64,000 bases of DNA from contig JADJAK010000001.1 in the NCBI GenBank assembly GCA_016704275.1, forward strand, positions 496,985-560,984, given 5' to 3'. This document shows, in pieces, positions 7,699 through 55,031 of the stretch; the stretch's first letter is position 1; every line of letters starts with the position of its first letter. The position numbers and the translations under genes are program-made. The notes under the pieces were generated by a model that saw only the letters and a list, made by a program, of their open reading frames with translations, made no database searches and was not told the DNA's origin. The DNA comes from Gemmatimonadota bacterium (lineage in GTDB: Bacteria > Gemmatimonadota > Gemmatimonadetes > Gemmatimonadales > GWC2-71-9).

Positions 7699-7720
7699 GT
7701 CGTAGGTCGTAGGTCGTAGG
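7692..7720 (+). repeat. tandem heptamer array GTCGTAA-(GTCGTAG)x3, an orphan arm of the heptad element family
   Basis: Read directly. The first unit supplies the TAA stop of the upstream gene (..AAG TCG TAA). Stops at 7696, 7703 and 7710 fall in three different frames. Confidence 0.85.
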
Positions 7721-7741: not shown

Positions 7742-7770
7742 GGCCCGGCGGGAGGGATCTCCGCCGGGCC
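7742..7770. terminator. GC-rich hairpin between convergent genes (possible terminator)
   Basis: Perfect 10-bp stem GGCCCGGCGG/CCGCCGGGCC with a 9-nt loop. On the minus strand it is followed by the T-containing tract 'acgtttcgcgtttga'. There is no clean U-tract. Confidence 0.45.
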
Positions 7771-7826
7771 TCGCCGTTGCCGTTCGCCGTCTACTTACGG
7801 CCCAACACCGCCCGCCCCCTTCGACG

Positions 7827-8465
7827 TTAGTAGCCGCCCGCCTTCACCCCTTCCTTGGCACTCCCCAGCCCGATCCGGATGCCGCCGTGGAACGAGTAGC
7901 TCGCGCCGCGGATCAGCTTGTCATCGCCGGGGGCGGTGTGGATCTGCGCCTGGGCGAATGCGGTGAAGCGATTCCAGCGGCCCTGCACGCCGGCGAGGCC
8001 GGTCATGAAGGCGTACGCCGAGGCGTCCTGCGCAGAGCTGAGGAGATCGGCGCGGGTGAAGGGATCCTGCACGACGGGATCGACCCGCGGCGAGATCACC
8101 TGCATGATGCCGCCGCCGACGCCGAAGTACGGCTCGAGCGGGGCCTTCACCGGGAACGCCATCAAGACGGCCTGATAGCGACGGACGTCGTTGAAGAGGA
8201 TCAGCCCCGACTGCTCGTCGGACCCGAGTCCCTCGTCGACGCCGACCATCAGCCCGCCGCGGCGGCCCATGATCAGGATGTGGGCACCGGCCGAGGGCAG
8301 GATCTTCGTGTCCTGGGTCCGGGTCTGGATCATCATGGAGCCGGCCTGCAACCCGAGCTTCCAGGTGTAGGAGTCGTCCCGCTGGGCGGTAGCGCGGCCC
8401 GGGGTGACCGCGGCCAGGGCCAGGGCGACGAGACAGGCGCCGAACGCCCGCTGGATCTGCGACAT
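7827..8465 (-). CDS. hypothetical outer-membrane beta-barrel-like protein with signal peptide
   Basis: Signal peptide 'MSQIQRAFGACLVALALAAVTPGRATAQ'. Gly-rich sequence with alternating hydrophobic residues. Terminal aromatic '...KAGGY'. Start taken at the internal Met of ORF 7827..8498. Confidence 0.7.
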   Translation of the reverse strand: MSQIQRAFGACLVALALAAVTPGRATAQRDDSYTWKLGLQAGSMMIQTRTQDTKILPSAGAHILIMGRRGGLMVGVDEGLGSDEQSGLILFNDVRRYQAVLMAFPVKAPLEPYFGVGGGIMQVISPRVDPVVQDPFTRADLLSSAQDASAYAFMTGLAGVQGRWNRFTAFAQAQIHTAPGDDKLIRGASYSFHGGIRIGLGSAKEGVKAGGY

Positions 8466-11355: not shown

Positions 11356-11559
11356 ATGGCTACCAAGAAGGCTGCGAAGAAGGCCGCGAAGCGGCCGGCG
11401 AAGAAGGCCGCGAAGAAGGCTGCCAAGCGTCCGGCGAAGAAGGCCGCGAAGAAGGGCGCGAAGAAGGCTGCCAAGCGTCCGGCGAAGAAGGCTGCCAAGA
11501 AGGCCGCCAAGCGTCCGGCGAAGAAGGCCGCCAAGAAGGCCGCGAAGAAGGCTGCGTAA
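11356..11559 (+). CDS. histone H1-like Lys/Ala-rich DNA-binding protein (67 aa)
   Basis: ATG preceded by GGGAGG. Protein is 'MATKKAAKKAAKRPAKKAAKK...' throughout. Followed by a strong hairpin terminator. The track ORF start at 11248 is probably too far upstream. Confidence 0.75.
   Translation: MATKKAAKKAAKRPAKKAAKKAAKRPAKKAAKKGAKKAAKRPAKKAAKKAAKRPAKKAAKKAAKKAA
11365..11556 (+). repeat. in-frame coding tandem repeat (12-nt KKAA sub-unit organised in 36/48-nt KRPAKKAAKKAA units)
   Basis: KRP recurs at residues 12, 24, 40 and 52. The DNA units 'aagcgtccggcgaagaaggc(c/t)gc(c/g)aagaaggc...' are near-identical. Confidence 0.85.
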
Positions 11560-13753: not shown

Positions 13754-14377
13754 ATGCGCGAGAATCTAGCCGCCACCCTCCGTCTCCTGCTCGTGACCGA
13801 CGACGCCCTGCTGGGCGCGCGCGACCCGATCGCCGTGGCGCGCGCCGCCGTCGCGGGAGGCGTCACCGCCATTCAGCTCCGGCTCAAGCACGCCACCGAT
13901 CGCGACCTTCTCGCGCTGGCCCGCCACCTCGTGGCGCTCCTGCCGGTCCCGATCTTCGTCAACGACCGGCTCGACATCGCCATCGCCGCCGGCGCGGCGG
14001 GCGTCCATCTCGGCGCCGACGACCTCCCGCCAGCCCGGGCCCGGCGAATCGTCCCCGCGGGATTCCTCCTGGGTGCGTCGGTGGGCAGTCACGCCGAAAT
14101 CGAGCGCGGGCTCGCCGCCGACTATTGGGGCATCGGGCCGCTGCATGGCACCCGCACCAAGGATGATGCCGGCCTGGCCCTCGGACGCGATGGGGCCGCG
14201 ATGCTGCTGGCGGCGGCGGGCACTCGTCCATGCGTGGTCATCGGTGGCGTACAGCCGGAGGATGTCGCGCCGGCGCTCGCCGCAGGCTTTGCGGGCGTCG
14301 CCGTGGCGAGCGGGATTCTGGGGGGGGAGGATGTGGAGGGGGGGGCGAGGAAGTACCGGATGATGGATGATGGATGA
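13754..14377 (+). CDS. thiE: thiamine-phosphate synthase
   Basis: Last 207 codons of track ORF 11666..14377: 'LLLVTDD...GGVTAIQLRLK...IFVNDRLDIAIAAGAAGVHLGADD...GASVGS...YWGIGPLHGTRTK...VIGGV...GVAVASGIL'. The C-terminal 'RMMDDG*' is encoded by the heptamer repeat. Confidence 0.9.
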   Translation: MRENLAATLRLLLVTDDALLGARDPIAVARAAVAGGVTAIQLRLKHATDRDLLALARHLVALLPVPIFVNDRLDIAIAAGAAGVHLGADDLPPARARRIVPAGFLLGASVGSHAEIERGLAADYWGIGPLHGTRTKDDAGLALGRDGAAMLLAAAGTRPCVVIGGVQPEDVAPALAAGFAGVAVASGILGGEDVEGGARKYRMMDDG

Positions 14378-14545
14378 TGGATAATTGCAGAATGCTGTCA
14401 TCCTGAGCGGAGCAGCCCGCAGGGCTGCGCAGTCGAAGGACCTCTTCCCCGAAGCGCTCGGAGAGGGGTCCTTCGACTTCGCGACGGCTACGCCGCCGCT
14501 TCGCTCAGGATGACAATTCCATCACCCATCATCCATCATCCATCG
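14358..14545. repeat. composite nested palindromic element (heptad arms plus inner inverted repeats)
   Basis: Outer arms are (GGATGAT)x3-GGATAAT at 14358-14385 and (ATCATCC)n at about 14521-14545. Inner perfect 14-bp IR TGTCATCCTGAGCG (14396-14409) / CGCTCAGGATGACA (14502-14515). 7-bp hairpin GCAGCCC-gca-GGGCTGC. 11-bp IR GTCGAAGGACC (14432-14442) / GGTCCTTCGAC (14467-14477). Confidence 0.9.
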
Positions 14546-14548
14546 TCC

Positions 14549-15514
14549 CTATCGGCCTCGCACCTGCTTGATATTCCGCAAATGCTGCGAGTACTCCACC
14601 GCAAAGAGATGCGTCCCGTCGCCCACGGCGACGAAGTAGAGCTCGCGCCCCGGGGCGGGGGAGAGCACCGCCTCGATCGCGGCATCGCTCGGGTTGCCGA
14701 TCGGTGTCGGTGGCAGGCCGGTGTGGAGATAGCTGTTGTAGGGTGACGGGTAGGCGTAATCCTTGTTGTAGAGCCGCGGCTTCCGCGCGCCCGAATCGAC
14801 CAGGTAGGCGTACTGGATTGTCGGGTCGGCCTGGAGGGGCATGCCCAGGCGGAGCCGGTTCCGATAGACGGCCGCGATCCGCGGCAGCTCGACGGCGCGC
14901 ATCGCCTCGGCCTCGATGATCGAAGCGAGGGAGATCACGTCGGCCTGGTCGAGGTCGGCGGCGTCGGCACGTGCCTTCCAATCAGCCGGCCAATGCGAAC
15001 GGCGGGCGTCGAGGAACGCCTCGAGCACCTCCTTCGCTCCGCCGAGACCGGTGAAGGTGAAGGTGACCGGACGGAGCCACCCTTCGACGGTGGCACCCGG
15101 GATCCCGAATTCCCGGCGCAGGGCGCTGTCGCGGGCCGCGCGGAGCAAGGTGTCGGCGGGAATCGCCAGCACACTCTCGGCCCGGCGGGCGAGGTCGAAG
15201 AGCGTGGCGCCTTCGGGGAGCGTGATCTTGAATCGGACGGCATCGCCGCTCGCCAGCCGGTCGAGCAGTGCGGCGGTCGAACTGCCGGGGACGAATTCGT
15301 AGACGCCGGGCTTGAGCCGCCGATCGACACCCTGCATCCGCCCACGCAGCCGGAACCAGCGCGCGTTGGCGATGATGCCACGCGCCACGAGCGAGTCGCC
15401 GATGCTGGCCAGCGTGCTCCCCTTGGGGACGCCCACGCGGACCGCCGGACCGTCGCCTCCGCCACACGCGGTGAGGAGAGCGAGCGCCACGAACGCCACG
15501 CGCCGGCGGCTCAT
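14549..15514 (-). CDS. mltG: endolytic murein transglycosylase MltG (YceG-like)
   Basis: Signal-anchor 'MSRRRVAFVALALLTACGG'. YceG blocks 'ASIIEAEA', 'VYRNRLRLGMPLQADPTIQYA', 'YNSYLHTGLPPTPIGNPS'. Follows ruvX as in many bacteria. Start taken at the internal Met (aa 8 of the track ORF). Confidence 0.88.
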   Translation of the reverse strand: MSRRRVAFVALALLTACGGGDGPAVRVGVPKGSTLASIGDSLVARGIIANARWFRLRGRMQGVDRRLKPGVYEFVPGSSTAALLDRLASGDAVRFKITLPEGATLFDLARRAESVLAIPADTLLRAARDSALRREFGIPGATVEGWLRPVTFTFTGLGGAKEVLEAFLDARRSHWPADWKARADAADLDQADVISLASIIEAEAMRAVELPRIAAVYRNRLRLGMPLQADPTIQYAYLVDSGARKPRLYNKDYAYPSPYNSYLHTGLPPTPIGNPSDAAIEAVLSPAPGRELYFVAVGDGTHLFAVEYSQHLRNIKQVRGR

Positions 15515-15996
15515 TTCCGCCTCGCGTCGAGCCAACGCTCCAGCACGATCGCGGCGGCCATCGCATCGATGTCGGCCTTCCGCTGGCGCGGGGCGATGCC
15601 GCGCTCGGTCAGCCGCTCGAGCGTTTCGGCGGTCGTGAAGCTCTCATCGATCCACGCGATCGGCAGCGATGCGCGGGCTGCGAACTGCTCCCCCATGGCG
15701 CGTGCTGCCAGCGCGGACTCTCCTTCGGCCCCCTCGTCATCGAGGGGGAGCCCGACCACCAGGCCGACCGGATGCTCGCGCTCGACCAGATCGAGAAACT
15801 GCCCCAACGGCAAGCGTTTCCCCGCCCGGCGCGTGAGCGTGCCGAGCGGGGAGGCGAGAAGCTGCGTCTCATCGGTGATCGCGACGCCGATGCGGGCGTG
15901 GCCCCAGTCGAGGGCCAGGACGCGGCCAGTGTGGATGGTCGTGGAGGCGGTGTAGGTCGATGAGTCGTAGTCGATCGAGGGGGGGTCATCGATCAT
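15511..15996 (-). CDS. ruvX: Holliday junction resolvase-like nuclease RuvX/YqgF
   Basis: 'RVLALDWGHARIGVAITDE...PLGTL...VGLVVGLPLDDEG...' YqgF family. The first ~25 codons overlap a repeat region, so the true start may be further downstream. Confidence 0.8.
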   Translation of the reverse strand: MIDDPPSIDYDSSTYTASTTIHTGRVLALDWGHARIGVAITDETQLLASPLGTLTRRAGKRLPLGQFLDLVEREHPVGLVVGLPLDDEGAEGESALAARAMGEQFAARASLPIAWIDESFTTAETLERLTERGIAPRQRKADIDAMAAAIVLERWLDARRK

Positions 15997-16008
15997 CGAT
16001 TCCGAACC

Positions 16009-17256
<1,248 letters not shown>

Positions 17257-24015: not shown

Positions 24016-25931
24016 CCTCAGCTGACCATTCCCGCCCTGCCACCGAAGCGCTCGCGGCATGGTTCCTCGGACCCGGCGGCGAGAACGCTGCGGAGCTCGA
24101 ACAGCTGGCCGCCGAGGCCATCCGCGACCACGTCGACTGGCGGCGTGCGTTCCACCCGGAAGACGGTGCCGTCCTCTCGCCCGAGCGAATCGCCGCGCCA
24201 GGCGCTGAAGCCGCGCGCACCCTCTTGGCCCGTGAGTTCCGCTCGCTGCTGGTCGCACTCAAGCGCGATGTCCCCTTCTACAGCGGGCGCTACCTCGGGC
24301 ACATGCTCGGTGAGCAGACGCTGGCCGCGCAGCTGGGCTATCTCGCGGCGATGCTCTACAACCCGAACAACGTCGCGGCCGAAGTGTCGCCAGTCACCAC
24401 GCGGCTGGAAGTGGAGGTGGCCGAACAGCTCGCGGCGATGATTGGCTATCCCGCCGGCGCGTCGTGGGGCCACCTCACCTCCGGCGGGACGATCGCGAAC
24501 TTCGAGGCGCTGTGGATCGCGCGGAGCATCCGCTATCACGGCGTGGCGCTGGCGCTGGCTGCGGCCGGCGCCGCCGTTTCGCTGATGGTTCGCCTGCCGG
24601 ACGGCACGCGTCGCGACCTGCGGGACCTTTCGCTCTGGCAGCTGCTCAATCTCGAACCGACCGAAACGCTCGATGCCGACCGTGAACTGCATCGGCTGCT
24701 TCCACCGGCCGAGGCGCGTGCGGCGCTCGACGCGCATTCGCTCGCCACGATCGGCTATCAGGACTACGCGCGCCAGCTCTCGAGTGCGTACGGCGATGCC
24801 CTGGCGCCAGGTGTCGTGCTGGTGGCCTCGACGGCGCACTACTCCTGGGAGAAGATCACCCGGGCGCTTGGCATCGGCGGGCACTGCATGCTGGCGGTGC
24901 CGGTTGATGCGCACGCGCGGATGGACCCGGCCGCGCTTTGGAGCATCCTGCAGGAGTGCGCGGCCACGCGAACGCCGGTGCTGGCGCTCGTGAGTGTCTG
25001 CGGCAGCACGGAGGAAGGGGCGGTCGACCAGCTCGACCAGATCGCCGAGGTGCGTGCTCGCGCCGCCCACGACCTGGGCCTCACCTTTCACTGGCACGCC
25101 GACGCCTGCTTCGGAGGCTACGCCGCCTCGGTGACGCGCGCGGCCGATGGCACGCGGCGGAGCGGCACAACGATCCGCGCTGCGACCGGGATCTCATGGC
25201 CCTCGGATGCCTGGGTCGCCGCGATGACGGCGCTCGAACAGACCGACTCGGTCACCATCGATCCGCACAAGCTCGGCTACATCCCCTATCCGGCCGGGGC
25301 GTTCCTCCTCCGCGATCGACGCGCGCGCGCCCTCGTCGCGATCGACCCGCCCTACCTCTCCCAACCGACCCACGACGCGCGCGACGACGAGCGATTCCTC
25401 GGTCGCTGGATACTCGAGGGGTCAAAGCCGGGGGCGGCGGCGGCTGCGGTGTGGCTGTCCCATCGTGTGGTGCCACTCGACGAGCGGGGGTATGGCACCA
25501 TCATCGCACGCGCCGTCGCCGGCGCACACCGATTGCACGAGGCGCTCGAGGTGCCCGGCGCCGTGCGACTGTCCGTGCCCGACCTTTCGGTGGTCAACTG
25601 GGTGATGACGAGCCCAGTGGTGCACGGCATCGAGGCGCTCAACGCGATGAACGAATCGGTCTACCGCCAGCTGTCGCCGGGTGACGAGACGCCGAACTAC
25701 TACATCACGCGGACGCGGCTCGCCTCACCCTCGGCCGACGGGATTGTCCTGCCGTTGCTGGGGGCGCTGGGCGTGTCGGACGCCGAGTGGCGACGCCACG
25801 GCCTGGTCGTGCTGCGAGCGGTGGTGATGACGCCGTACCTCGTCGATCCGCCGGGAACGGCCGATCACTGCGCCGGGCTGGTCGCCGCGCTGCGGGCAGC
25901 CACCCTGCGCGCGGCGGCCGAAGTCAGCTGA
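24012..25931 (+). CDS. pyridoxal-dependent decarboxylase (group II, large ~640-aa form)
   Basis: 'HLTSGGTIANFEALWIAR', 'CGSTEEGAVD', PLP-lysine block 'SVTIDPHKLGYIPYPAGAFLLRD'. Confidence 0.85.
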   Translation: MTSADHSRPATEALAAWFLGPGGENAAELEQLAAEAIRDHVDWRRAFHPEDGAVLSPERIAAPGAEAARTLLAREFRSLLVALKRDVPFYSGRYLGHMLGEQTLAAQLGYLAAMLYNPNNVAAEVSPVTTRLEVEVAEQLAAMIGYPAGASWGHLTSGGTIANFEALWIARSIRYHGVALALAAAGAAVSLMVRLPDGTRRDLRDLSLWQLLNLEPTETLDADRELHRLLPPAEARAALDAHSLATIGYQDYARQLSSAYGDALAPGVVLVASTAHYSWEKITRALGIGGHCMLAVPVDAHARMDPAALWSILQECAATRTPVLALVSVCGSTEEGAVDQLDQIAEVRARAAHDLGLTFHWHADACFGGYAASVTRAADGTRRSGTTIRAATGISWPSDAWVAAMTALEQTDSVTIDPHKLGYIPYPAGAFLLRDRRARALVAIDPPYLSQPTHDARDDERFLGRWILEGSKPGAAAAAVWLSHRVVPLDERGYGTIIARAVAGAHRLHEALEVPGAVRLSVPDLSVVNWVMTSPVVHGIEALNAMNESVYRQLSPGDETPNYYITRTRLASPSADGIVLPLLGALGVSDAEWRRHGLVVLRAVVMTPYLVDPPGTADHCAGLVAALRAATLRAAAEVS

Positions 25932-27342
25932 AGAGCGGGCGCGGCTCGCTGGGCCCGACGCCGAGCCAGGCGCAGATGACCGGGTAAAGGTCAACGGTGC
26001 GGAGTGGACCGGACGGGAGCGGCCGGTTCGACCACGCCGGGGTCAGCATGTGGCCGGCGATCAACGAGCCGTGCCCGGATTTGTGCTCCGGATATTCCCA
26101 TGCCTCGCGGAAGTCCCACCCCTCGGCGGCTGCGATCACGAGGTCGCCGGTGCGCGGCGCCTGGAATTGATCGAGCAGCGAGACCGGCCCATCGGGAAAG
26201 GGGCCGTCGATCGTGCGCGCCAACCACTCGCGATGATCATGCGTCGCATCGGCGCCGATCACCAGGGGATCACCGCTCTCGCGCGTGTAATGAATCGCCT
26301 CGCCGTCGCGGCGGAGCGTCGCCTCGCCAGCCGCCGAGGCCACCCGTACGCCACCGCCCGGTTCCGCACCCGCCACCAGTGCAATCCCCGCCTCGGCAGT
26401 GAGTGACGCGACCGCGTCGCCGGCGATGCCGAGGGCGCCCGGGGTGCGGAGCATCGAGAGTGGATGCCGTGCCGCGCGTGGGACGTTGGGTGTGGCGTAG
26501 ACGGCGGCCTGCGCGTTGCCCGCCACCATCACCGCGACCTGCGGGTCCCGAGTCCAGAGGACCGGATGCGCCAGCGTCCGCGCGCCACGCTTCCGGAACC
26601 AGGTGGCAAGGTCGAGGTGGTGGTGCACCGGGGCCGCGCCGTGGTCGCTCACGATCATGATCAGCGTGTCGTCGAGCCGGCCGAGGGCACGCAGCCGCTC
26701 GGTGAGCGCGCCGATGGTGGCGTCGACCTTTCGGAGCGAGTCGAGCACGCGGGGCGCGTCGGGGGTGGCGGCGTGGGTGTGGCCATCGACGGCGGGGAAC
26801 TGCGCAAAGCAGAACCGCCAATCGCCGCCCGCCTGTGCCAGCAATTCGGCGGCGACCGCGTCGTCGCCCGGCTGGTGGTTCTCGGTGTAGTGCGAGATGG
26901 TCCCCCAGAACTTCCGAGCGCCCTGGATCCTGTCGGCCTCCGTCGGGAGGCCGCGGGTGATCATCGAGAAGATCGCGATGCTCTCCGGCACCAGCTCGAA
27001 GATCGTGGCCACGTCGGGCGCGATGTCGCGATTCAGGTGCCCCGCCTGCCAGCCGCAGTAGCTGCGCACCGCGTCGCGGTCGGCCCACCAGCGGCCGGTA
27101 TAGGCCTCGCGATCGAGCCAGCGAATGGACGGGACGTTGCAGCGCCCGGGCAACGCGCCGGTCAGGAAGGGGAGATAGGCCACGCTGGTCGTGGATGGGA
27201 AAGCCGTGGCCGCACGCGACCGCGTGCCACCCGCCGTCAGGGCGGCAAGGTGCGGCAGGTGGCCCGCGGCGAGTTCGCGCTCGGCGACATCGGCCCGGAG
27301 GCCATCGATCAGGAGGAGGAGGACGCGTTTCACGGCGGGCAT
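25924..27342 (-). CDS. alkaline-phosphatase-superfamily nucleotide pyrophosphatase/phosphodiesterase (NPP-like)
   Basis: 'VLLLLIDGLRADV', 'FPSTTSVAYLPFLTG', 'DGHTHA', 'MIVSDHG'. These are the metal and nucleophile motifs of PF01663-type enzymes. Confidence 0.82.
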   Translation of the reverse strand: MPAVKRVLLLLIDGLRADVAERELAAGHLPHLAALTAGGTRSRAATAFPSTTSVAYLPFLTGALPGRCNVPSIRWLDREAYTGRWWADRDAVRSYCGWQAGHLNRDIAPDVATIFELVPESIAIFSMITRGLPTEADRIQGARKFWGTISHYTENHQPGDDAVAAELLAQAGGDWRFCFAQFPAVDGHTHAATPDAPRVLDSLRKVDATIGALTERLRALGRLDDTLIMIVSDHGAAPVHHHLDLATWFRKRGARTLAHPVLWTRDPQVAVMVAGNAQAAVYATPNVPRAARHPLSMLRTPGALGIAGDAVASLTAEAGIALVAGAEPGGGVRVASAAGEATLRRDGEAIHYTRESGDPLVIGADATHDHREWLARTIDGPFPDGPVSLLDQFQAPRTGDLVIAAAEGWDFREAWEYPEHKSGHGSLIAGHMLTPAWSNRPLPSGPLRTVDLYPVICAWLGVGPSEPRPLFS

Positions 27343-27348
27343 TTTAAC

Positions 27349-27405
27349 GCGAGAAGCGAGCAGCGAGAAGCGAGAGCGGAGTCGTAAGTCGGTCGTAGGT
27401 CGAGG
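27349..27405. repeat. two abutting 7-nt periodic arrays in a divergent promoter region
   Basis: GCGAGAA-GCGAGCA-GCGAGAA-GCGAGAG (27349-27376), then GTCGTAA-GTCG-GTCGTAG-GTCGAGG (27381-27405). Confidence 0.8.
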
Positions 27406-27458: not shown

Positions 27459-28772
27459 ATGGCGCCTGACCCCCCGATCGTGGAACGTCCGACCGACTCG
27501 GCGCGATGGGTCCGTGGCGGCCCCCGCGCCGTGCGTCGGTTCTGGCACTCCCTCGGGCCGGGGCTGGTGACGGGCGCGGCCGACGACGATCCGTCGGGGA
27601 TCGCCACCTACTCCATCGCCGGCGCCCGCTACGGCACCTCGCTGCTCTGGATGTCGCTGCTCACCTGGCCGCTGATGGCAGCCGTGCAGACGATGTGCGC
27701 GCGGATCGGCATGGTGACCGGGCACGGACTGGCGGCGGCCCTGCAGCAGAAGTTCTCCCGCTCGGTGCTGCTGGTGATGTGCGTCGGGTTGATGATCGCC
27801 AACACCATCAACATCGGCGCCGATCTCGCCGGGATGGCCGACGCCGCCGAGCTGATCACCGGGGTCAATTCCCACCTGATGGTGGTCGTCTTCGGCGGCC
27901 TGATTGCCTGGGCAACGGTGCAACTGCGGTACGCGGTCTTCGCGCGCGTGCTCAAGTGGCTCGCCCTGGTGCTCGGCGTCTACATCATCGCCGCGATCGA
28001 TCTCAAGCCGGTCTGGAGCTCCGTGCTCCACGACACCTTCTTCCCCTCCGGCCTGCGCTCGCGCGAGGCCTGGTCGACGGTCGTCGCGATCCTCGGCACC
28101 ACGATCTCCCCCTACCTCTTCTTCTGGCAGGCCAGTCAGGAGGTCGAGGAGGAAAAGGCCGCGGGCAAGGTGACGGAAGAAGCCCGGCGGGGCGCGACCG
28201 AGGCGCAACTCCACGCCCGGAAGCTCGACGTCGGCTTCGGCACCTTCTTCTCGAACCTCGCGATGTTCTTCATCATCCTGACGACGGCACTGACGCTGCA
28301 CAAGGCGGGCATCACCGAACTGGCGACCGGTGCCGAAGTGGCGAAGGCGCTCGAGCCACTCGCCGGGCGCTTCTCGTCCTGGCTGTACGCCATCGGCGTG
28401 ATCGGCACCGGCGCCTTGGCGATTCCCACACTGGCCGGCTCGGCGGCGTATGCCTTCGCCGAGACGCTTGGCTGGCAGCAGGGAATGGACGAACAGTTCA
28501 AACGCGCCAAGCCGTTCTACGCCGTGATCGTCGTCTCGCTCCTGATCGGGGTACTGCTCGACTTCGCCGACATCTCGCCCGTCAAGGCGCTGTACTGGAC
28601 CGCCGTCCTCAACGGGGTGCTGGCGCCCTTTCTCCTCACGGCGATCCTCATGGTCGCGGGCAACAAGGCCATCATGCAGGGGCAGCCGTCGTCGCGGCTC
28701 GGGATGGTGACGGTGGGCGTGACGACGGTGGTGATGTTCGGGGCGGCGATTGCGATGTTTGCGACGGGATAG
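27459..28772 (+). CDS. mntH: Nramp-family divalent metal (Mn2+/Fe2+) transporter
   Basis: 'GLVTGAADDDPSGIATYSIAGARYG' is the Nramp signature. 10-11 TM helices. 437 aa. Confidence 0.88.
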   Translation: MAPDPPIVERPTDSARWVRGGPRAVRRFWHSLGPGLVTGAADDDPSGIATYSIAGARYGTSLLWMSLLTWPLMAAVQTMCARIGMVTGHGLAAALQQKFSRSVLLVMCVGLMIANTINIGADLAGMADAAELITGVNSHLMVVVFGGLIAWATVQLRYAVFARVLKWLALVLGVYIIAAIDLKPVWSSVLHDTFFPSGLRSREAWSTVVAILGTTISPYLFFWQASQEVEEEKAAGKVTEEARRGATEAQLHARKLDVGFGTFFSNLAMFFIILTTALTLHKAGITELATGAEVAKALEPLAGRFSSWLYAIGVIGTGALAIPTLAGSAAYAFAETLGWQQGMDEQFKRAKPFYAVIVVSLLIGVLLDFADISPVKALYWTAVLNGVLAPFLLTAILMVAGNKAIMQGQPSSRLGMVTVGVTTVVMFGAAIAMFATG

Positions 28773-28889
28773 TCGATGATCGATGATCGATGATCGATGA
28801 TCGATGGTCGAGTGGCGGGAACGGGGAGAGAGTGTTCGGTAACGAACCGTGGCTGATCGATCATCGATCATCGCCCATCGATCATCGAG
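28773..28889. repeat. heptad inverted-repeat element (TCGATGA arms)
   Basis: Left arm (TCGATGA)x4-TCGATGG-TCGAG at 28773-28812, starting right after the Nramp TAG. Right arm CTGATCGATCATCGATCATCGCCCATCGATCATCGAG at 28853-28889. The spacer contains the mini-hairpin GTTCG-GTAA-CGAAC. Confidence 0.9.
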
Positions 28890-37276: not shown

Positions 37277-37350
37277 TGGGCCCGGCGCGATTCGAACGCG
37301 CGACCTCTTGCTCCGGAGGCAAGCGCTCTATCCAGCTGAGCTACGGACCC
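37277..37350 (-). tRNA. tRNA-Arg (anticodon CCG)
   Basis: Hand-folded cloverleaf: GGGTCCG/CGGGCCC acceptor, anticodon loop CTCCGGA, T-arm GCGCG-TTCGAAT-CGCGC. 74 nt. CCA not encoded. Confidence 0.9.
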
Positions 37351-37361
37351 CTTTGTTCTAG

Positions 37362-37436
37362 TCGGGGCGAGAGGATTTGAACCTCCGGCCTCCTGCTCCC
37401 GAAGCAGGCGCGCTAACCGGGCTGCGCTACGCCCCG
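37362..37436 (-). tRNA. tRNA-Pro (anticodon CGG)
   Basis: CGGGGCG/CGCCCCG acceptor, anticodon stem-loop CCTGC-TTCGGGA-GCAGG, T-loop TTCAAAT. 75 nt. Confidence 0.9.
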
Positions 37437-37474
37437 AATACTCTGTTGGTGCCGACGGACGGCACCGCACTGCA

Positions 37475-37548
37475 TGGGCCCAAAGGGAGTCGAACCCCTA
37501 ACCTTCTGATCCGTAGTCAGATGCTCTATCCAGTTGAGCTATGGACCC
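37475..37548 (-). tRNA. tRNA-Arg (anticodon ACG)
   Basis: GGGTCCA/TGGGCCC acceptor, anticodon stem-loop TCTGA-CTACGGA-TCAGA, T-loop TTCGACT. 74 nt. Confidence 0.9.
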
Positions 37549-37576
37549 CTACCCCTGCAACTGCAACTCGAATCCA

Positions 37577-37650
37577 TGGGCGGTACAAGACTCGAACTTG
37601 TGACCTCCACGATGTCAACGTGGCGCTCTAACCAACTGAGCTAACCGCCC
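37577..37650 (-). tRNA. tRNA-Val (anticodon GAC)
   Basis: GGGCGGT/ACCGCCC acceptor, anticodon stem-loop CCACG-TTGACAT-CGTGG, T-loop TTCGAGT. 74 nt. Confidence 0.9.
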
Positions 37651-37704
37651 GATCACAACAACGGGCAGACGACCCTGGGGCCGACTGCCCGTCGCCGTCC
37701 TGCA

Positions 37705-37778
37705 TGGCGGGGGTGGGATTTGAACCCACGACCTCCGGGTTATGAGCCCGGCGAGCTACCAGACTGCTCCACCCCGCG
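37705..37778 (-). tRNA. initiator tRNA-fMet (anticodon CAT)
   Basis: Near-identical to the E. coli tRNAfMet layout as I recall it. 5' CGCGGGG with an unpaired 1:72 position (C1 opposite C72). Three consecutive G:C pairs closing the anticodon loop (CCGGG-CTCATAA-CCCGG). 74 nt. Confidence 0.85.
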
Positions 37779-37795
37779 ACGTTTTCTCTGCTCAG

Positions 37796-37868
37796 AGCGG
37801 GAAACGGGACTCGAACCCGCGACCCCAACCTTGGCAAGGTTGTGCTCTACCAACTGAGCTATTCCCGC
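37796..37868 (-). tRNA. tRNA-Gly (anticodon GCC)
   Basis: GCGGGAA/TTCCCGC acceptor, discriminator U, anticodon stem-loop CAACC-TTGCCAA-GGTTG. 73 nt. Confidence 0.9.
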
Positions 37869-37949
37869 AACTTCCCGATCAAGGGAGGCCCAACCTACCC
37901 GGCCCCTCGACTCTACGCAACCGGTCGACCTTCCAACCGGTCGTGGGAG

Positions 37950-38022
<73 letters not shown>

Positions 38023-40597: not shown

Positions 40598-41600
40598 GTC
40601 GCCGGAGCGACTTCTCGGTCGGCCTCGCCGTCGTCGGCGCCCTCGCGGTGGTGATCGTGGCGGCCCTTTGGCTCGGCGACCTCGGCCCGCGCGGTCCCAA
40701 GTCGCTGCACACGGCACGCTTCCGCACGGTCGGCGGCGTGAAGGTCGGCGACCCGGTCGTGCTGCGCGGCGTGAAGGTCGGTCGGGTCGAGGCGATTCGC
40801 CTGGCCGCCGATGACTGGGTCGAGACCGATCTCCGGATGAGCGCGCCAGAGGAAGTCCCCGAGCGCGCGGTGGCGATTGCGGTGTCGGCGTCGCTCTTCG
40901 GCGAGTGGCAGATCGCCGTGATGGACTCGGCGCGTGCCCCGGCCGACCCCGACGTGCAGAAGGCGCTCACCGAGGCGCGCAGCGGGCGGGGACGTCGTGG
41001 CCGGGCGCCACGCTGCCGGACATCGGCCAGCTCACCGCGCAGGCCTCGCGCATTGCCGGCGACATCGCCGCGGTGACGGCGCGCGTGCAGGACGCCGTCG
41101 ACTCGCAGGCGATCGGTGACATCCGCGGGTCGGTGCGCGACCTCCGCCGAATGGCCGATCAGCTGCTCTCGTTCACGCAGCGCCAGACGGCCTCGATGGA
41201 CAAGGTCGTCGGCAACGCTGCCAACTCGTCGGATGACATCGCCAAGGCGTCGAAGCATCTCGACGCGACCCTCTCGCGCATCGATTCGTCGACGTCCTCG
41301 GGCGAGCTCTCCGCCCTGGTGGCCGACGCGCGCAGCGCCACCGGTGAGCTGAAGGCCGCCAGCGGCGACCTGCGCCTCTTGACCACCGCCGCCGCCCAGC
41401 AGCGCGACAAGATGGTGCACATCCTCACCGCGACCGACGACGTGCTCACCCGGTTGCAGCAGGGCCAAGGCACCCTCGGCCTGCTCACCTCCGACTCGAC
41501 GCTCTATCGCGAGACCACCAAGACCGTGGTGCAACTGCGCACGCTGCTGGCGGATATCCAGGCCAACCCGCGGCGGTATTTCAGGTTCTCCGTCTTCTAG
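40594..41600 (+). pseudogene. mlaD: MCE/MlaD-family substrate-binding protein, split by a frame change near 40981-41005
   Basis: ORF 40594..41076 has a TM anchor plus the MCE domain ('FRTVGGVKVGDPVVLRGVKVGRVEAI'), then degenerates into Arg-rich junk. ORF 40905..41600 resumes with 'WPGATLPDIGQLTAQASRIAGDI...' and a long coiled-coil C-terminus. The junction lies at G-runs (gcgggcggggac). Confidence 0.8.
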
Positions 41601-41603
41601 GCA

Positions 41604-41694
41604 GTCGTTAGTCGTTGGTCGTTAGTCATAGGGGCTCCGGCCCGTGAGATCATCGATGGCGCGCCCCAACGACTAACGACTAACGACCAACGAC
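41604..41694. repeat. heptad inverted-repeat element (GTCGTTA arms)
   Basis: Left arm GTCGTTA-GTCGTTG-GTCGTTA-GTCATAG-G at 41604-41631, 3 nt after the mlaD TAG. Right arm AACGACTAACGACTAACGACCAACGAC at 41668-41694. Spacer of about 36 nt. Confidence 0.9.
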
Positions 41695-41704
41695 TTCGAG
41701 CCCC

Positions 41705-44674: not shown

Positions 44675-45553
44675 ATGGCGACCAATCGCGCGCTCAAGGG
44701 ACGGATTCGTTCCGTCACCAACACGCGGAAGATCACGCGGACGATGGAGCTCGTCTCCACGTCCAAGCTGAAGCGCGCCCAGGACCGCGTGGTCGCCGCC
44801 CGGCCGTACGCCGAGGCGCTGCGCCAGGTCATTGCCGACCTGGTGACGCCGGAACTGGCGGAGCGCTTTCCGCTGCTGCGGAGTCCGCAGTCCCCGGCGA
44901 AGGGCGGGCCGTCGCGTGCGGTGATCATCCTCGTCACGTCGAATCGCGGGCTGGCGGGTGGCTTCAATGCCAACCTGATCAAGGAAGCCCGTCGTCGGAT
45001 CGACGCGCTCGAGGCCGAGGGCTATCAGGTCGAGCTCGTCGGGGTCGGCAAGAAGGGTATCGGCTTCTTCAAGTATCTCGGCCGCGCCTTCCGGAGCGAG
45101 CGCCCCGACATCGGCGACCGCCCGACGGCGGAGCATGCCGTCTCGCTGGTGCAGGACCTGATGGATGGCTTCGCCGACGGCAGCATCGGCGTCGTCGAAC
45201 TGGTGCAGTCGCGCTTCATCTCGGTGCTGAACTCGCCGCCGGCCACCATCCGCATCCTGCCGATCACGCCGCCCGAGCAGCAGGCCGGTGGCGTGCGTCC
45301 GGACTACATCCTGTCGCCCGATCCCGAGACGCTGCTGGAGCAGGTGCTCCCGCTCTACGTCCGGAACATGATGTACCGCGGCCTGGTCGAGACCGTGGCC
45401 GCAGAGCATGCGGCGCGCCGCACCGCGATGAAGAACGCCACCGACAACGCCGGCGACCTCATCGATGCGCTGAAGCGGACGTACAACCGCCAGCGTCAGG
45501 CGCAGATCACGCAGGAAATCGCCGAGCTGGTCGGCGGCGCTGCCGCACTTTAA
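44675..45553 (+). CDS. atpG: F0F1 ATP synthase subunit gamma
   Basis: 'MATNRALKGRIRSVTNTRKITRTMELVSTSKLKRAQ' and C-terminus 'YNRQRQAQITQEIAELVGGAAAL'. Start is 2 nt after the atpA stop. Confidence 0.93.
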   Translation: MATNRALKGRIRSVTNTRKITRTMELVSTSKLKRAQDRVVAARPYAEALRQVIADLVTPELAERFPLLRSPQSPAKGGPSRAVIILVTSNRGLAGGFNANLIKEARRRIDALEAEGYQVELVGVGKKGIGFFKYLGRAFRSERPDIGDRPTAEHAVSLVQDLMDGFADGSIGVVELVQSRFISVLNSPPATIRILPITPPEQQAGGVRPDYILSPDPETLLEQVLPLYVRNMMYRGLVETVAAEHAARRTAMKNATDNAGDLIDALKRTYNRQRQAQITQEIAELVGGAAAL

Positions 45554-47041
<1,488 letters not shown>

Positions 47042-52164: not shown

Positions 52165-52886
52165 TGGATCGTGGCCAACTTGATGCGGATATTGCGCGCC
52201 TTGTGACGCGCCTGCAGGCGGACGATGCGCCGGCAGGCAGCGCGCTGCTCTACGGTTCGGTGGTGCGGGGCGACTGGATCGCCACGCGCTCCGACGTGAA
52301 CCTCCTCTTGGTGATGGACGATGCGTCGCCGACTGGACTGCGCCGGCTCGCCGGGGCGGTGTCGGAGTGGCATCGGGCCGGTCACACGGCGCCGTTGATC
52401 ATCGGTCGCGAGGAATGGCAGCGCTCCGTCGATGTCTTTCCGATCGAGATGACCGACATGCAGCTTGCCTACCGCGTGCTGCACGGCACCGACCCGCTCG
52501 CGGGCGTCCGCGTGGCACCGTCGGACCTGCGTCGTGCGCTGGAGTCGGAGCTGCGCGGCAAGCTGGTGCGCTTGCGCCAGGCCTATGTCCGCTTCGGCGA
52601 GTCGATGGTGACGCTGGGTGGTTTTGCCACCGCCTCCGTCGGCCAGCTGCTGGTGCTGTTTCGGTGCACCGGTGCACTGCTCGGGCGTCCCCTGAGCGCG
52701 ACGGCCGCCGAAACCATCGCTGGTCTCTCCGACGTACTCGGCGAGGATGCGGCGGTGATCACCGAGATCGCGGGGCACCGGGCCGAACCCGAGTGGCACT
52801 GCCCCCCCGCCACGTTCGCCCGGTATCTTGAGGTGGTCCACCGGGCGGTTGAGTTCATTGACCACTACCCACAGGGAGATGCTTGA
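52164..52886 (+). CDS. nucleotidyltransferase-domain protein (minimal NTase plus helical C-terminal domain)
   Basis: TGATG junction with the TPM gene. 'LLYGSVVRGDWIATRSDVNLLLVMDD' is a GS...D.D NTase motif. The C-terminal part contains 'HRAEPEWH' (R-x5-H). Confidence 0.75.
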   Translation: MDRGQLDADIARLVTRLQADDAPAGSALLYGSVVRGDWIATRSDVNLLLVMDDASPTGLRRLAGAVSEWHRAGHTAPLIIGREEWQRSVDVFPIEMTDMQLAYRVLHGTDPLAGVRVAPSDLRRALESELRGKLVRLRQAYVRFGESMVTLGGFATASVGQLLVLFRCTGALLGRPLSATAAETIAGLSDVLGEDAAVITEIAGHRAEPEWHCPPATFARYLEVVHRAVEFIDHYPQGDA

Positions 52887-53455
52887 TGCGCCGCATGCTT
52901 CGTAGTGCCTCGTTCCTCGTCGCCGTGACGGTCCTCGCCAGCGGCTGCGGGTACAACTCGCTGCAGGGGCTCGATGAGCAGGTGAACAAGGCCAAGGGAC
53001 AGATCGAGGTGCAGTTGCAGCGCCGTGCCGACCTGATCCCGAACCTGGTGGCCACCGTGAAGGGGGTCGCCGCGCAGGAGACGACGGTGTTCATCGCCGT
53101 CGCCGAGGCGCGCGCCAAGCTCTCCGGCGCGGTGCAGGGCGGCAATCTCGGCGAGATGGCCAATGCCAACCAGGCACTGACCGCGCCGCTCGGGCGCTTG
53201 ATTGCCATCTCGGAGGCGTATCCGGAACTCAAGAGCAACGCGAACTTCCTGCAGTTGCAGGATCAGCTCGAGGGGACGGAGAACCGGATCGCGGTCGCGC
53301 GGACGGACTACAACACCGCCGTGGAGCAGTTCAACACCACGACGCGGAAGTTTCCGACCAACCTGACGGCGAAGATGTTCGGCTTGGGGAAGGCGCGCGA
53401 GTACTTCGAGGTCACGACGCCGGGTGCGAAGGATGCGCCGGCGGTGAAGTTCTGA
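52883..53455 (+). CDS. lemA: LemA family protein
   Basis: Lipobox-like 'VLASGCGYNSLQ', 'QLQRRADLIPNLV', 'EAYPELKSNANFLQLQDQLEGTENRIAVAR.DYN'. Canonical LemA. 4-nt overlap with the NTase gene. Confidence 0.9.
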   Translation: MMRRMLRSASFLVAVTVLASGCGYNSLQGLDEQVNKAKGQIEVQLQRRADLIPNLVATVKGVAAQETTVFIAVAEARAKLSGAVQGGNLGEMANANQALTAPLGRLIAISEAYPELKSNANFLQLQDQLEGTENRIAVARTDYNTAVEQFNTTTRKFPTNLTAKMFGLGKAREYFEVTTPGAKDAPAVKF

Positions 53456-53459
53456 AGGG

Positions 53460-53532
53460 GTCGTAAGTCGTAGGTCGTAAGTCGTAGGTCAGTCGCCACA
53501 GGACCTACGACCTATGACATATGACTTACGAC
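53460..53532. repeat. heptad inverted-repeat element (GTCGTAR arms), ~31-bp stem with 11-nt loop
   Basis: Left arm at 53460-53490 and right arm at 53502-53532. 27 of 31 positions are complementary and 2 more are G.U-compatible. It lies between convergent lemA and metG, and the metG TAA is inside the right arm. Confidence 0.92.
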
Positions 53533-55031
53533 TTTCTCTGAAAGAGATTTTCCGGCTTCCGCACCGACGCCCCGCCCATCGCGGGGCGTTTGGCGTTTGC
53601 CCAGGCGGCGTCAGGCGTGCCGTCCTGGCCGAGTGCCGTCCAGAGGGCGGTGGCCTTCTCGGGCATGAAGGGGAACAGCATCACGGAGAGACGATAGAGA
53701 CACGACACGAGCTCGCAGAGGGCCGTGTCGAGCTCGGCGTCCTTCCCCTCCTTGGCGAGCGTCCATGGTGCGTGGACCACGATGTACCGATTGCCCTCGC
53801 TCACGAGTTCGTTGATCGCCTCGGCCGCCCCCTTGAGTCCCTGCGCCTCCATTGCCGTCTCGTAGCGCGCGAGTGCCTCGCTGCCTGCCTCTGCGAGAGT
53901 TGCTGGCTCCGCCGACGGGACGACGCCATCCCGGTACTTCTCGACCATCGCGAGCACGCGTGAGGCCAGGTTGCCGAGGCCATTGGCGAGCTCGCTCTCG
54001 TAGACGGCGTCGAACCGCTCGAACGTGAAGTCGCCGTCGTGCTCGAAGCCGACCTCGCGCAGCAGGAACCAGCGGAGCGCGTCGGCGCCGTGCCGCTCGG
54101 CCGCTTCCGCGATCGTCACCGAACTCCCCTCCGACTTGCTCACCTTGGCGCCGCCCCACTGCACGTAGCCGTGGGCCCAGATCGCCGTCGGCAGCGGCAG
54201 GTCGGCGGCCAGCAGCATCGCCGGCCAGATGATGCAGTGGAAGCGGGTGATCCCCTTGCAGACGACGTGGAGATCGGCCGGCCAGATGGCGTCCCAGCCG
54301 TCGTTCGGATAGCCCGTCGCGCTCAGGTAGTTGATGAGCGCGTCGAACCAGACGTAGACGGTCTCGTCGTCGGTGCCGGGGAACGGAATGCCCCATGGCA
54401 ACCGCGCGCGCGAGATCGAGATGTCCTGCAATCCCTCGCGCAGCGTGCTGAGGATTTCGTTGCGACGGATCTGCGGCTCGACCCGAAAGGCCTCGTTGGC
54501 CTCGACGAGCGCGAGGACGCGGTCGCGATACGCCGAGAGGCGGAAGAAGGTGTTCTTCTCCTTGGTGCGCACGAGGTCGCGCGACGGATGCTCGGGACAC
54601 CGACCGTCGACGAGTTGCCCTTCCTGCTTGAACTCCTCGCAGCCGACGCAATACAGCCCCTCGTACTCACCGACGAAGAGATCCTCCGGGTGCCGCTCGC
54701 GGATCCGTTCGAGCAGTGCCTGCACCCCGGCGGCGTGGCGCGGCTCGGTGGTACGCATCCAGTCGTCGTGGGCGCAGTGGAGGCTGAGCCAGGTCTGCTC
54801 GAAGTGCCTCGAGATGCCGTCAACCCAGGCCTGTGGAGACATCCCCGCGGCCTGCGCCGACTGAAAGACTTTCTGGCCGTGCTCGTCCATCCCCATCAGG
54901 AAACGCACCGGCTGCCCCTGCAGGCGATGCCAGCGGGCAATGGCGTCGGCGCCGATCTTCTCGAGGGCGTGGCCCAGATGCGGGTCGCCGTTGGCGTAGT
55001 CGATGGCGGTGGTGATGTACCAGGGCTTCAC
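53526..55031 (-). CDS. metG: methionine--tRNA ligase (short form)
   Basis: 'AIDYANGDPHLGHALE' (HIGH-type), 'KVSKSEGS' (KMSKS-type), Zn knuckle 'CVGCEEF...CPEH'. Confidence 0.93.
   Translation of the reverse strand: MKPWYITTAIDYANGDPHLGHALEKIGADAIARWHRLQGQPVRFLMGMDEHGQKVFQSAQAAGMSPQAWVDGISRHFEQTWLSLHCAHDDWMRTTEPRHAAGVQALLERIRERHPEDLFVGEYEGLYCVGCEEFKQEGQLVDGRCPEHPSRDLVRTKEKNTFFRLSAYRDRVLALVEANEAFRVEPQIRRNEILSTLREGLQDISISRARLPWGIPFPGTDDETVYVWFDALINYLSATGYPNDGWDAIWPADLHVVCKGITRFHCIIWPAMLLAADLPLPTAIWAHGYVQWGGAKVSKSEGSSVTIAEAAERHGADALRWFLLREVGFEHDGDFTFERFDAVYESELANGLGNLASRVLAMVEKYRDGVVPSAEPATLAEAGSEALARYETAMEAQGLKGAAEAINELVSEGNRYIVVHAPWTLAKEGKDAELDTALCELVSCLYRLSVMLFPFMPEKATALWTALGQDGTPDAAWANAKRPAMGGASVRKPENLFQRKS

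Follow-up and report, generated by a model that had tools for sequence, protein, structure and literature searches.

Inverted pairs of heptamer arrays form a dispersed family of hairpins at gene ends in Gemmatimonadota

A periodic hairpin between lemA and metG

The 64,000-nucleotide (nt) stretch of DNA analysed here (the window) comes from a Gemmatimonadota bacterium of the order Gemmatimonadales and contains, between the convergent genes lemA (LemA family) and metG (methionine-tRNA ligase), a hairpin of two 33-nt heptad-periodic arms around an 11-nt loop (locus H, 53458-53534). An original prediction, made from the letters alone, took this hairpin as the type locus of a dispersed repeat family that ends transcripts or stabilizes RNA and stops translation in every frame. 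We find this prediction partly supported: the observation is highly non-random and describes a dispersed hairpin family at gene ends, whose stop codons appear incidental.

The arm sequences, the loop and the convergent setting read as had been claimed. The 5′ arm begins 3-4 nt past the lemA stop codon (53453-53455). On the minus strand the 3′ arm reads GTCGTAA GTCATAT GTCATAG GTCGTAG GTC, and it includes the last two sense codons of metG together with its stop TAA (TTA on the plus strand, 53526-53528), which lies within the first unit of the arm, as predicted. The C-terminus of MetG in the window (...QRKS before the stop) comes from this first arm unit, while that of its relatives ends ...PRLA; the closest MetG relatives are all encoded in metagenome-assembled Gemmatimonadota or Gemmatimonadales genomes. 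Folding locus H as RNA gave a stable hairpin on both strands, with -49.4 kcal/mol on the plus strand (z -8.5) and -43.3 kcal/mol on the minus strand (z -7.1), and 0 of 200 shuffles were as stable in either case. The locus closes six of six reading frames within 75 nt, as had been claimed, and just 1.1% of the other 75-nt intergenic windows in the 64 kb do the same. A direct 6-nt repeat, TCTGAA, flanks the hairpin (53449-53454 and 53536-53541); as the sole flanking repeat of at least 5 nt among 23 elements, it is probably due to chance.

Period-7 arrays elsewhere in the window

Arrays in the window were located with Tandem Repeats Finder (TRF) and with our own periodicity scan, using a score of at least 11 and dinucleotide shuffles as the control. 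This check of period-7 enrichment returned 11 arrays against 0.1 expected, and 0 arrays of period 4, 5, 8, 10, 11, or 13 at the same threshold. The array units average 47% guanine plus cytosine (GC) against 69% for the whole window, in agreement with the earlier remark that they are poorer in GC than their surroundings.

The arrays fall into eight loci (Table 1), six of which (B, C, E, F, G, and H, with C weak) are hairpins with periodic arms whose cores are unrelated to one another. All of the other copies named in the original prediction are present, with two qualifications: the copy at 15986 (locus C) is weak, and the arrays at 27349 and 27381 (locus D) are unpaired and not at a gene end. 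Locus D, a solo array without an inverted partner in the divergent promoter region between the gene at 25924-27342 (minus strand) and the Nramp gene at 27459-28772 (plus strand), is therefore an exception to the gene-end rule, and its GCGAGAA is the only stop-free unit family in the window. Several of the remaining loci abut stop codons. Locus E follows the Nramp stop codon (28770-28772) immediately, the right arm of locus B adjoins the stop of the minus-strand gene at 14549-15514, and locus F starts 2 nt past the stop of the gene at 40905-41600, with the next start codon 10 nt on. At locus A, the first unit supplies, with its TAA, the stop of an open reading frame (ORF) rich in Lys and Ala (7132-7698); close by are a GC-rich hairpin (~7742-7770) and a decayed partner, CTACTTACG (~7791-7799). 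The arms of locus B enclose a 136-nt inner palindrome (GTCATCCTGAGCG...), and the whole folds with a free energy of about -135 kcal/mol.

Table 1 Features of the lemA-metG hairpin and of the other array loci in the window
Feature	Position (nt)	Strand	Description
Locus H, 5′ arm	53458-53490		GTCGTAA GTCGTAG GTCGTAA GTCGTAG GTC, (GTCGTAA/GTCGTAG) x4.4
Locus H, loop	53491-53501		AGTCGCCACAG, 11 nt
Locus H, 3′ arm	53502-53534		Inverted CTACGAC/TTACGAC array including two variant units
lemA (LemA family)	52883-53455	+	Pfam E 1e-54, synteny in annotated relatives; 3′ end towards the hairpin
metG (methionine-tRNA ligase)	53526-55031	-	Pfam E 5e-92, synteny in annotated relatives
Locus A	7690-7720		GTCGTAA + GTCGTAG x3, between convergent genes
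Locus B	14358-14548		Arms GGATGAT x3.6 (14358-14382) and ATCATCC-type x4.4 (14519-14548)
Locus C	15955-16000		Weak degenerate ATCGATS-type palindrome, 8 nt from the stop of the minus-strand gene 16009-17256
Locus D	27349-27402		Solo direct arrays GCGAGAA x3.9, then GTCGTAA/G x2
Locus E	28773-28888		Arms TCGATGA x5.6 (28773-28811) and ATCGATC x4.7 (28856-28888), 44-nt core
Locus F	41603-41694		Arms AGTCGTT x3.6 and AACGACT x4, 40-nt core
Locus G	45553-45588		Self-complementary (ATCGATG ATCGATC) x2.6, between atpG (stop 45551-45553) and atpD

Distribution, pairing and placement across the phylum

The census set comprised 1.22 Mb from 81 Gemmatimonadota species, made up of the window and loci of at most ~21 kb selected through AtpD (a scan of one genome per species gave 80 Gemmatimonadota loci), in which genes were called by our own codon log-odds model. 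Tandem arrays are a phylum-wide feature of Gemmatimonadota, with a unit of preferably 7 nt and secondarily 8 nt. Period 7 accounts for 60 intergenic and 6 coding arrays and period 8 for 29 intergenic and 10 coding arrays, and periods 4, 5, 10, 11, and 13 contribute at most 7 arrays in total each. Arrays were found at 76 places (~62 per Mb), with 2 to 27 units per array. Palindromes of 8-nt units in relatives include GAGGCAAG, GGCGGGAC, and CGGAACGG (L010 920-993, L012 7254-7376, L017 6027-6159 and 7039-7257), and one array holds 27 units of CTGACCCG.

An inverted partner within 300 nt accompanies 66 of 105 arrays (63%), against 1 of 105 when the query was shuffled. The predicted family of dispersed hairpins with heptad-periodic arms is borne out. 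The paired elements also show the expected placement at gene 3′ ends: in co-directional spacers the median distance is 1.5 nt to the upstream stop and 24.5 nt to the next start, with the stop closer for 23 elements and the start closer for 6 (p=0.002). These elements occupy the stretch from the stop codon to the start-proximal signals of the next gene. Solo arrays have no positional bias towards the stop, and the divergent spacers that hold arrays are mostly gaps of >900 nt that probably hide genes missed by the caller. A few hairpins end just 6-12 nt before the next start, with no Shine-Dalgarno sequence visible (window 41695-41704, L010 994-999, L041 9993-10000). In these cases the foot of the stem joins the upstream stop to the downstream start, and termination could be coupled to reinitiation across the element once it is folded out.

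Counts at the level of arms (orientation, stops, T-runs, and flanks) rest on 23 explicit arm pairs across Gemmatimonadota, in which the two arms are 7-176 nt apart. On either strand, the G-rich arm almost always comes first: it is the 5′ arm in 19 pairs, against 4 that are C-first, and in a metagenome scan for (GTCGTAR)3 arrays all 23 partners lay on the downstream side of the G-strand arm and 0 on the upstream side. GTCGTAR arrays were found in >120 metagenome contigs spanning 29-74% GC. In viral contigs, three permuted heptamers of equal composition occur in 14, 14, and 18 contigs against 11 for GTCGTAR, which rules out GTCGTAR as a special unit spread across taxa and indicates that heptamer arrays arise generically. 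One IMG/VR contig classed as viral (L214) carries two G-first GTCGTAR palindromes (2436-2592 and 8041-8197) ~5.6 kb apart.

Stop codons in the repeat units

Three units of any heptamer that contains a stop triplet suffice to close all three frames. The original prediction read this property as a function, combining a terminator or stabilizing hairpin with a frame-independent stop in a genome poor in stop triplets. In the form weighed here, the elements would be selected dual modules whose stop catches read-through or frameshifted ribosomes. In the window, the arm beside a gene end usually closes three frames in the sense of that gene. Counted over both strands, loci H and B close six of six frames, a result that favours the dual module given the rarity of such closure in the control windows. 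The other loci close fewer (E and G 3+2, F 2+2, and A 3+0), so that the claim of six-frame closure at the recurring loci stands for H and B alone.

Across the phylum, stop triplets are moderately enriched in one class of units and some genes make use of them. Counting both strands, 23 of 42 period-7 unit families contain a stop triplet, where letter-permuted units give 15.0 +/- 2.3 (P ~3e-4). In high-GC contigs with a GTCGTAR array and a credible upstream gene (n=14), the gene has its own stop 0-22 nt before the array in 9 cases, and takes its stop from unit 1 in 2 and from unit 2 in 3. The array therefore supplies the stop of 5 of the 14 genes, besides those of metG and of the ORF ending at 7698. 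These points agree with a frame-independent stop role, while the arm pairs speak against it: 13 of 23 have zero stop triplets, in 16 of 23 neither arm closes three frames, and the stop-richer arm has no preferred orientation, being 5′ in 6 pairs and 3′ in 5. Units of 8 nt are unenriched (5 of 25 families against 4.4 expected), orthologous elements between atpG and atpD are built of stop-free units in relatives (GTTCGCA, TTGGATA, GGGAGAC), and the GGGAATC heptamer of Xanthomonas has no stop on either strand, as read from the unit. Closure of six frames is hence not a property of the class.

G-first orientation is a more general rule than stop content and, because stop codons contain no C, it alone would raise the stop content of 5′ arms, leaving them C-poor and stop-prone. 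We consider a selected dual module quite unlikely, and infer that stops in every frame are a permissive by-product and not the function.

RNA signatures, terminators and insertion marks

Rfam 15 at gathering score matches only seven tRNAs in the whole window, and permissive Rfam scans of loci H and B returned only chance-level matches far under the gathering scores. A known RNA family was rejected in the absence of any credible match in the window, at H, or at B. The terminator part of the prediction fared no better. A T-rich run follows only 3 of 23 pairs, and a scan for consensus intrinsic terminators over 40-60 kb of the window gave 7 hits against 6.3 expected, with 0 at arrays. A canonical intrinsic terminator was rejected on the missing U-tract rule and the chance-level scan.

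The stems are equally good in sense and antisense: the sense fold is the more stable in 13 elements and the antisense fold in 16, with 61 and 82 G-U pairs, respectively. This absence of asymmetry between RNA strands led us to reject selection at the RNA level, and complementarity therefore appears to be maintained at the level of Watson-Crick DNA pairing and not of the sense RNA. The flanks gave no sign of target-site duplication, the longest word shared between 12-nt flanks averaging 2.9 nt against 3.35 in the control, and a miniature inverted-repeat transposable element (MITE) with target-site duplication was rejected. Integron attC sites, clustered regularly interspaced short palindromic repeat (CRISPR) arrays, and G-quadruplex motifs were dismissed from anatomy alone, because core housekeeping genes flank the elements and neither spacers nor G-runs are present.

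Evolution at orthologous sites

Two sites allowed elements to be followed between genomes. At the metG-lemA site, a relative with 99% identical MetG (L208) has the same hairpin with one arm longer by one unit; arms gain and lose whole units, as in a variable-number tandem repeat. At 88-89% MetG identity a hairpin occupies this position too, its unit being GTCGTTR (L001-L003) or GTCCTGR (L209/L210, of which only the arm on the metG side is available, the other lying beyond the contig end). In L004 (80%) and L005 (77%) the two stop codons stand back to back and the element is absent. Between GTCGTAR in the window and GTCGTTR in L001-L003, the change from A to T is mirrored in the other arm, and four stem pairs are changed on both sides. 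Arms thus stay Watson-Crick complementary while the unit drifts, and a substitution appears in all units of both arms.

The atpG-atpD spacer holds a periodic palindrome in every readable member of the window's clade. Its units form a chain of single substitutions, from CGATGAT/CGATCAT (window, L001) through CGATCAG/CGAACAG (L002) and GGATGAT (L004) to GGATGTT/GGATATT (L005). Across the phylum, about one third of species have some periodic palindrome at this junction, with very different units; in the remaining species the spacer measures from a few bases to ~40 nt and has no periodic array. L001 and L002 are 95% identical around the junction, and their alignment breaks exactly at the spacer.

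In L016, L017, and L052, an unrelated palindromic element with GTCATCCTGAGCG occupies the atpG-atpD junction just upstream of atpD. This dispersed element, GTCATCCTGAGCG(G/A)AGC...GCTCAGGATGAC, is unrelated to the heptad arrays; it lies within hairpin B of the window at 14395-14512, and recurs directly after the GTCCTGR array of L209/L210. The heptads beside it (GGATGAT, GTCCTGA) are one base off its terminal heptamers (GGATGAC, ATCCTGA).

Every genome uses a small set of unit dialects of its own, which recur at several of its loci. Units are shared, with at most one mismatch, by 20 of 70 pairs of places in the same genome and by 72 of 2780 pairs between genomes. In L074 (2000-2135, 5125-5290, 11165-11330) and L035 (1020-1180, 8070-8220), copies are alike in their arms and also in the core between the arms, for example CAGTGAAC-GNCCTCGGGG, which suggests true duplication or mobility of a composite element. 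Because the same units and cores recur within a genome, some copying between loci occurs.

This recurrence keeps alive a model of non-autonomous mobile elements of the type of repetitive extragenic palindromic (REP) sequences, bacterial interspersed mosaic elements (BIMEs), or MITEs. Such elements would be copied between intergenic sites by a transposase encoded in the genome, for example a REP-associated tyrosine transposase (RAYT) or an IS200/IS605-type Y1 enzyme acting on hairpins, and their periodicity would be secondary. The replacement of an entire spacer between genomes that are 95% identical around it, and the presence of palindromes in about a third of species at atpG-atpD, including the unrelated GTCATCCTGAGCG element, are in keeping with mobility, as are the insertion sequence (IS) elements at a fixed distance from comparable sites in Geobacter (PMC2700814). 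The elements nonetheless have no target-site duplications, no conserved termini, and no fixed length; their unit number ranges from 2 to 27 and is not constant among strains, and the cores of the elements in the window are mutually unrelated. Orthologous arrays one unit substitution apart suggest descent in place. We regard mobile elements as an unlikely explanation of the family.

Relation to described repeats

The architecture is known already, with its function unestablished, from Xanthomonas (GGGAATC), Geobacter metallireducens, and cyanobacteria. The original prediction had not recognised the repeats as a described class; inverted pairs of tandem heptamers or octamers are on record in the first two (PMC4692102, PMC2700814). 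We found no published description in the literature of such arrays in Gemmatimonadota.

In Xanthomonas, a high-GC genome has 186 arrays of GGGAATC heptamers, 89-93% of them intergenic, with 70-75 convergent opposite-strand close pairs per genome, at a mean of 28 nt from the upstream ORF and 160 nt to the next (Rehm et al. 2015, PMC4692102). Sister species differ in the length and sequence of the arrays between matching genes, and G-quadruplexes, which the unit forms in vitro, were suspected, with the function left open by the authors (PMC4692102). The arrays of the window resemble them in their tandem 7-nt units, convergent inverted pairing, intergenic position, and location nearer the end of the upstream ORF. 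In Xanthomonas a single G-tract unit dominates, whereas the window has several coexisting families and stop triplets. The window units GTCGTAR, ATCGATS, GGATGAT, and GTCGTTR contain no GGG run, and some relatives have GGG units; G-quadruplex potential therefore cannot be the common denominator.

In Geobacter metallireducens, classes 1-3 of "global regulator binding sites" consist of 3-5 tandem repeats of 7-9 nt (Aklujkar et al. 2009, PMC2700814). Their units GTTGCTYN, TCTCCGTS, and MTYCTGA form opposite-strand pairs at variable distance in 24, 21, and 8 locations, between genes such as proB and proA, and the paired sites are absent from a sister species; IS elements lie at a fixed distance from class 1 (PMC2700814). 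The likeness extends to tandem 7-8-nt pairs on opposite strands, variable spacing, genome specificity, and multiple copies; that description gives no positional statistics relative to stop codons.

The Geobacter sites were read as binding sites of integration host factor (IHF) or HU (PMC2700814), and this precedent, with the strand symmetry of the stems and the genome-specific units that a co-evolving binding protein might leave, lends some plausibility to arrays that bind a nucleoid-associated or global regulatory protein, or to cruciform-forming chromosome elements. We consider this reading highly improbable in Gemmatimonadota, where unrelated units coexist in one genome (GTCGTAR, ATCGATS, GGATGAT, GCGAGAA), arms are spaced by 7-176 nt, and elements sit flush against stop codons and not in promoters. 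A 7-bp period also puts successive sites on different faces of the helix.

The TAACTGA heptamers of Beggiatoaceae, cyanobacteria, and Bacteroidetes are likewise intergenic tandem heptamers with stops in all three forward frames (MacGregor 2015, PMC4679880), a feature shared with our stop-bearing units. All-frame stops are thus not a new remark; they were presented there as a constraint on placement, limiting coding overlap to ~18 nt (PMC4679880). Unlike the elements of the window, the TAACTGA repeats comprise 169 direct sets and 1 indirect set, lie just upstream of starts, and use one unit across phyla (PMC4679880). The heptamer has been quoted as the most abundant long bacterial simple-sequence repeat and ascribed to polymerase slippage (Mrazek 2007, as quoted in PMC4692102 and PMC4679880), and cyanobacterial short tandemly repeated repetitive (STRR) heptanucleotides were reported earlier (Mazel et al. 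1990, as relayed by the same two papers). As far as those summaries go, long simple-sequence repeats (5-11 nt) and STRR agree with our arrays in heptamer preference, intergenic location, slippage origin, and strain variation. The same summaries present them as mainly direct arrays, with inverted pairing, G-first order, and flush placement after stops not part of the description.

Resemblance to REP had also been predicted, and here only the setting agrees. REP and BIME sequences of enterobacteria and pseudomonads are genome-specific extragenic palindromes at gene 3′ ends or inside operons, often in inverted pairs, with known effects on mRNA 3′-end stabilization and termination. A REP is a fixed, imperfect palindrome of 20-40 nt; its GTAG/GTGG head is conserved, and a RAYT transposase is its cognate enzyme. 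Like REP and BIME sequences, our elements are extragenic, lie at 3′ ends or within operons, and form genome-specific families. They depart from REP in that each arm is a tandem array of variable length (2 to 27 units) and, the ATCGATS unit excepted, not self-complementary. No fixed palindrome is present, and GTAG occurs only inside the GTCGTAG unit, being absent from ATCGATS, GGATGAT, GTCGTTR, and most units of relatives. The elements of the window are a further case of a loosely recognised and mechanistically unexplained kind of repeat, and lack defining features of REP sequences, intrinsic terminators, and MITEs.

Discussion

The explanation that we favour, with moderate confidence, is that these elements are palindromic microsatellites driven by slippage, which fill the unconstrained space past stop codons and incidentally form 3′ stem-loops. 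Replication slippage would give birth to the arrays and resize them. Palindromy would be kept by a DNA-level process (templated correction between the arms) or by selection on pairing, and purifying selection would halt growth where an array meets the stop codon at one end or the ribosome-binding or promoter region at the other. Expansion limited by the coding sequence and by the ribosome-binding site or promoter is expected to leave distances such as those observed, ~1.5 nt to the stop and ~25 nt to the next start. The AT-richer, stop-bearing unit families of this genome would allow an array to overlap the last codons of a gene harmlessly.

Transcribed elements would fold, at the 3′ end of the cistron before them, into stems of -45 to -135 kcal/mol. 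The most likely effect of such a 3′ stem-loop would be that of a barrier to 3′-exonucleases, of a pause site or terminator lacking U residues, or of an insulator between convergent genes. The G-first order may keep a C-rich Rho-loading segment unexposed before the stem closes.

Several results weigh against slippage as a full account. Slippage alone leaves unexplained both the recurrence of units at several loci of one genome and the inter-arm cores shared in L074 and L035. Comparing the arms for a mirror-image arrangement of their unit variants gave P=0.27. Neither a U-tract nor a sense-strand wobble signature supports a role in RNA, and a periodic palindrome retained at atpG-atpD in lineages as distant as 77% MetG identity might reflect a selected function and not tolerated DNA. 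Positions in the census loci depend, moreover, on home-made gene calls; on L001 the model recovered 19 of 21 listed genes, 18 of them with both boundaries within a few nt.

Palindromic 7-8-nt microsatellites might instead be a distinct class across phyla (Gemmatimonadota, Xanthomonas, Geobacter, and cyanobacteria) produced by a dedicated mechanism and not by plain slippage, a proposal we think very unlikely. In that version, a template or specificity factor encoded in the genome would direct the addition of G-rich units at the two 3′ ends of a break or of a stalled fork, after which the ends would be joined. Templated addition of this kind would jointly explain the dialects, the head-to-head G-first arrangement (the geometry of fused telomeres), and the strand-symmetric complementarity.

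The architecture has been noted in passing in three other phyla and explained differently in each, as G-quadruplexes, IHF sites, and fingerprinting markers. The Gemmatimonadota data supply common features: a 7-8-nt unit, inverted pairing with the G-rich arm first, flush placement after stops, genome-specific units, and both arms changing together. With neither G-quadruplex potential nor stop codons general, a scattered curiosity becomes a defined class. If the density found in the census is representative, a genome would hold a few hundred elements, shaping most gene ends and several operon junctions, including atpG-atpD. For annotators, the arrays offer a reason for miscalled gene ends and start codons at such loci.

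Additional observations

Two further features of the window were recorded. The Lys/Ala-rich ORF that ends in locus A (plus strand) is without a Pfam match, and a separate repeat at 11365-11556, for which TRF reports periods of 24, 36, and 48 nt with a AAGAAGGCCGCG-type consensus, likewise consists of Lys and Ala codons. A cluster of seven tRNA genes occupies 37277-38022 on the minus strand (Arg-CCG, Pro-CGG, Arg-ACG, Val-GAC, Met-CAT, Gly-GCC, and Ala-GGC).

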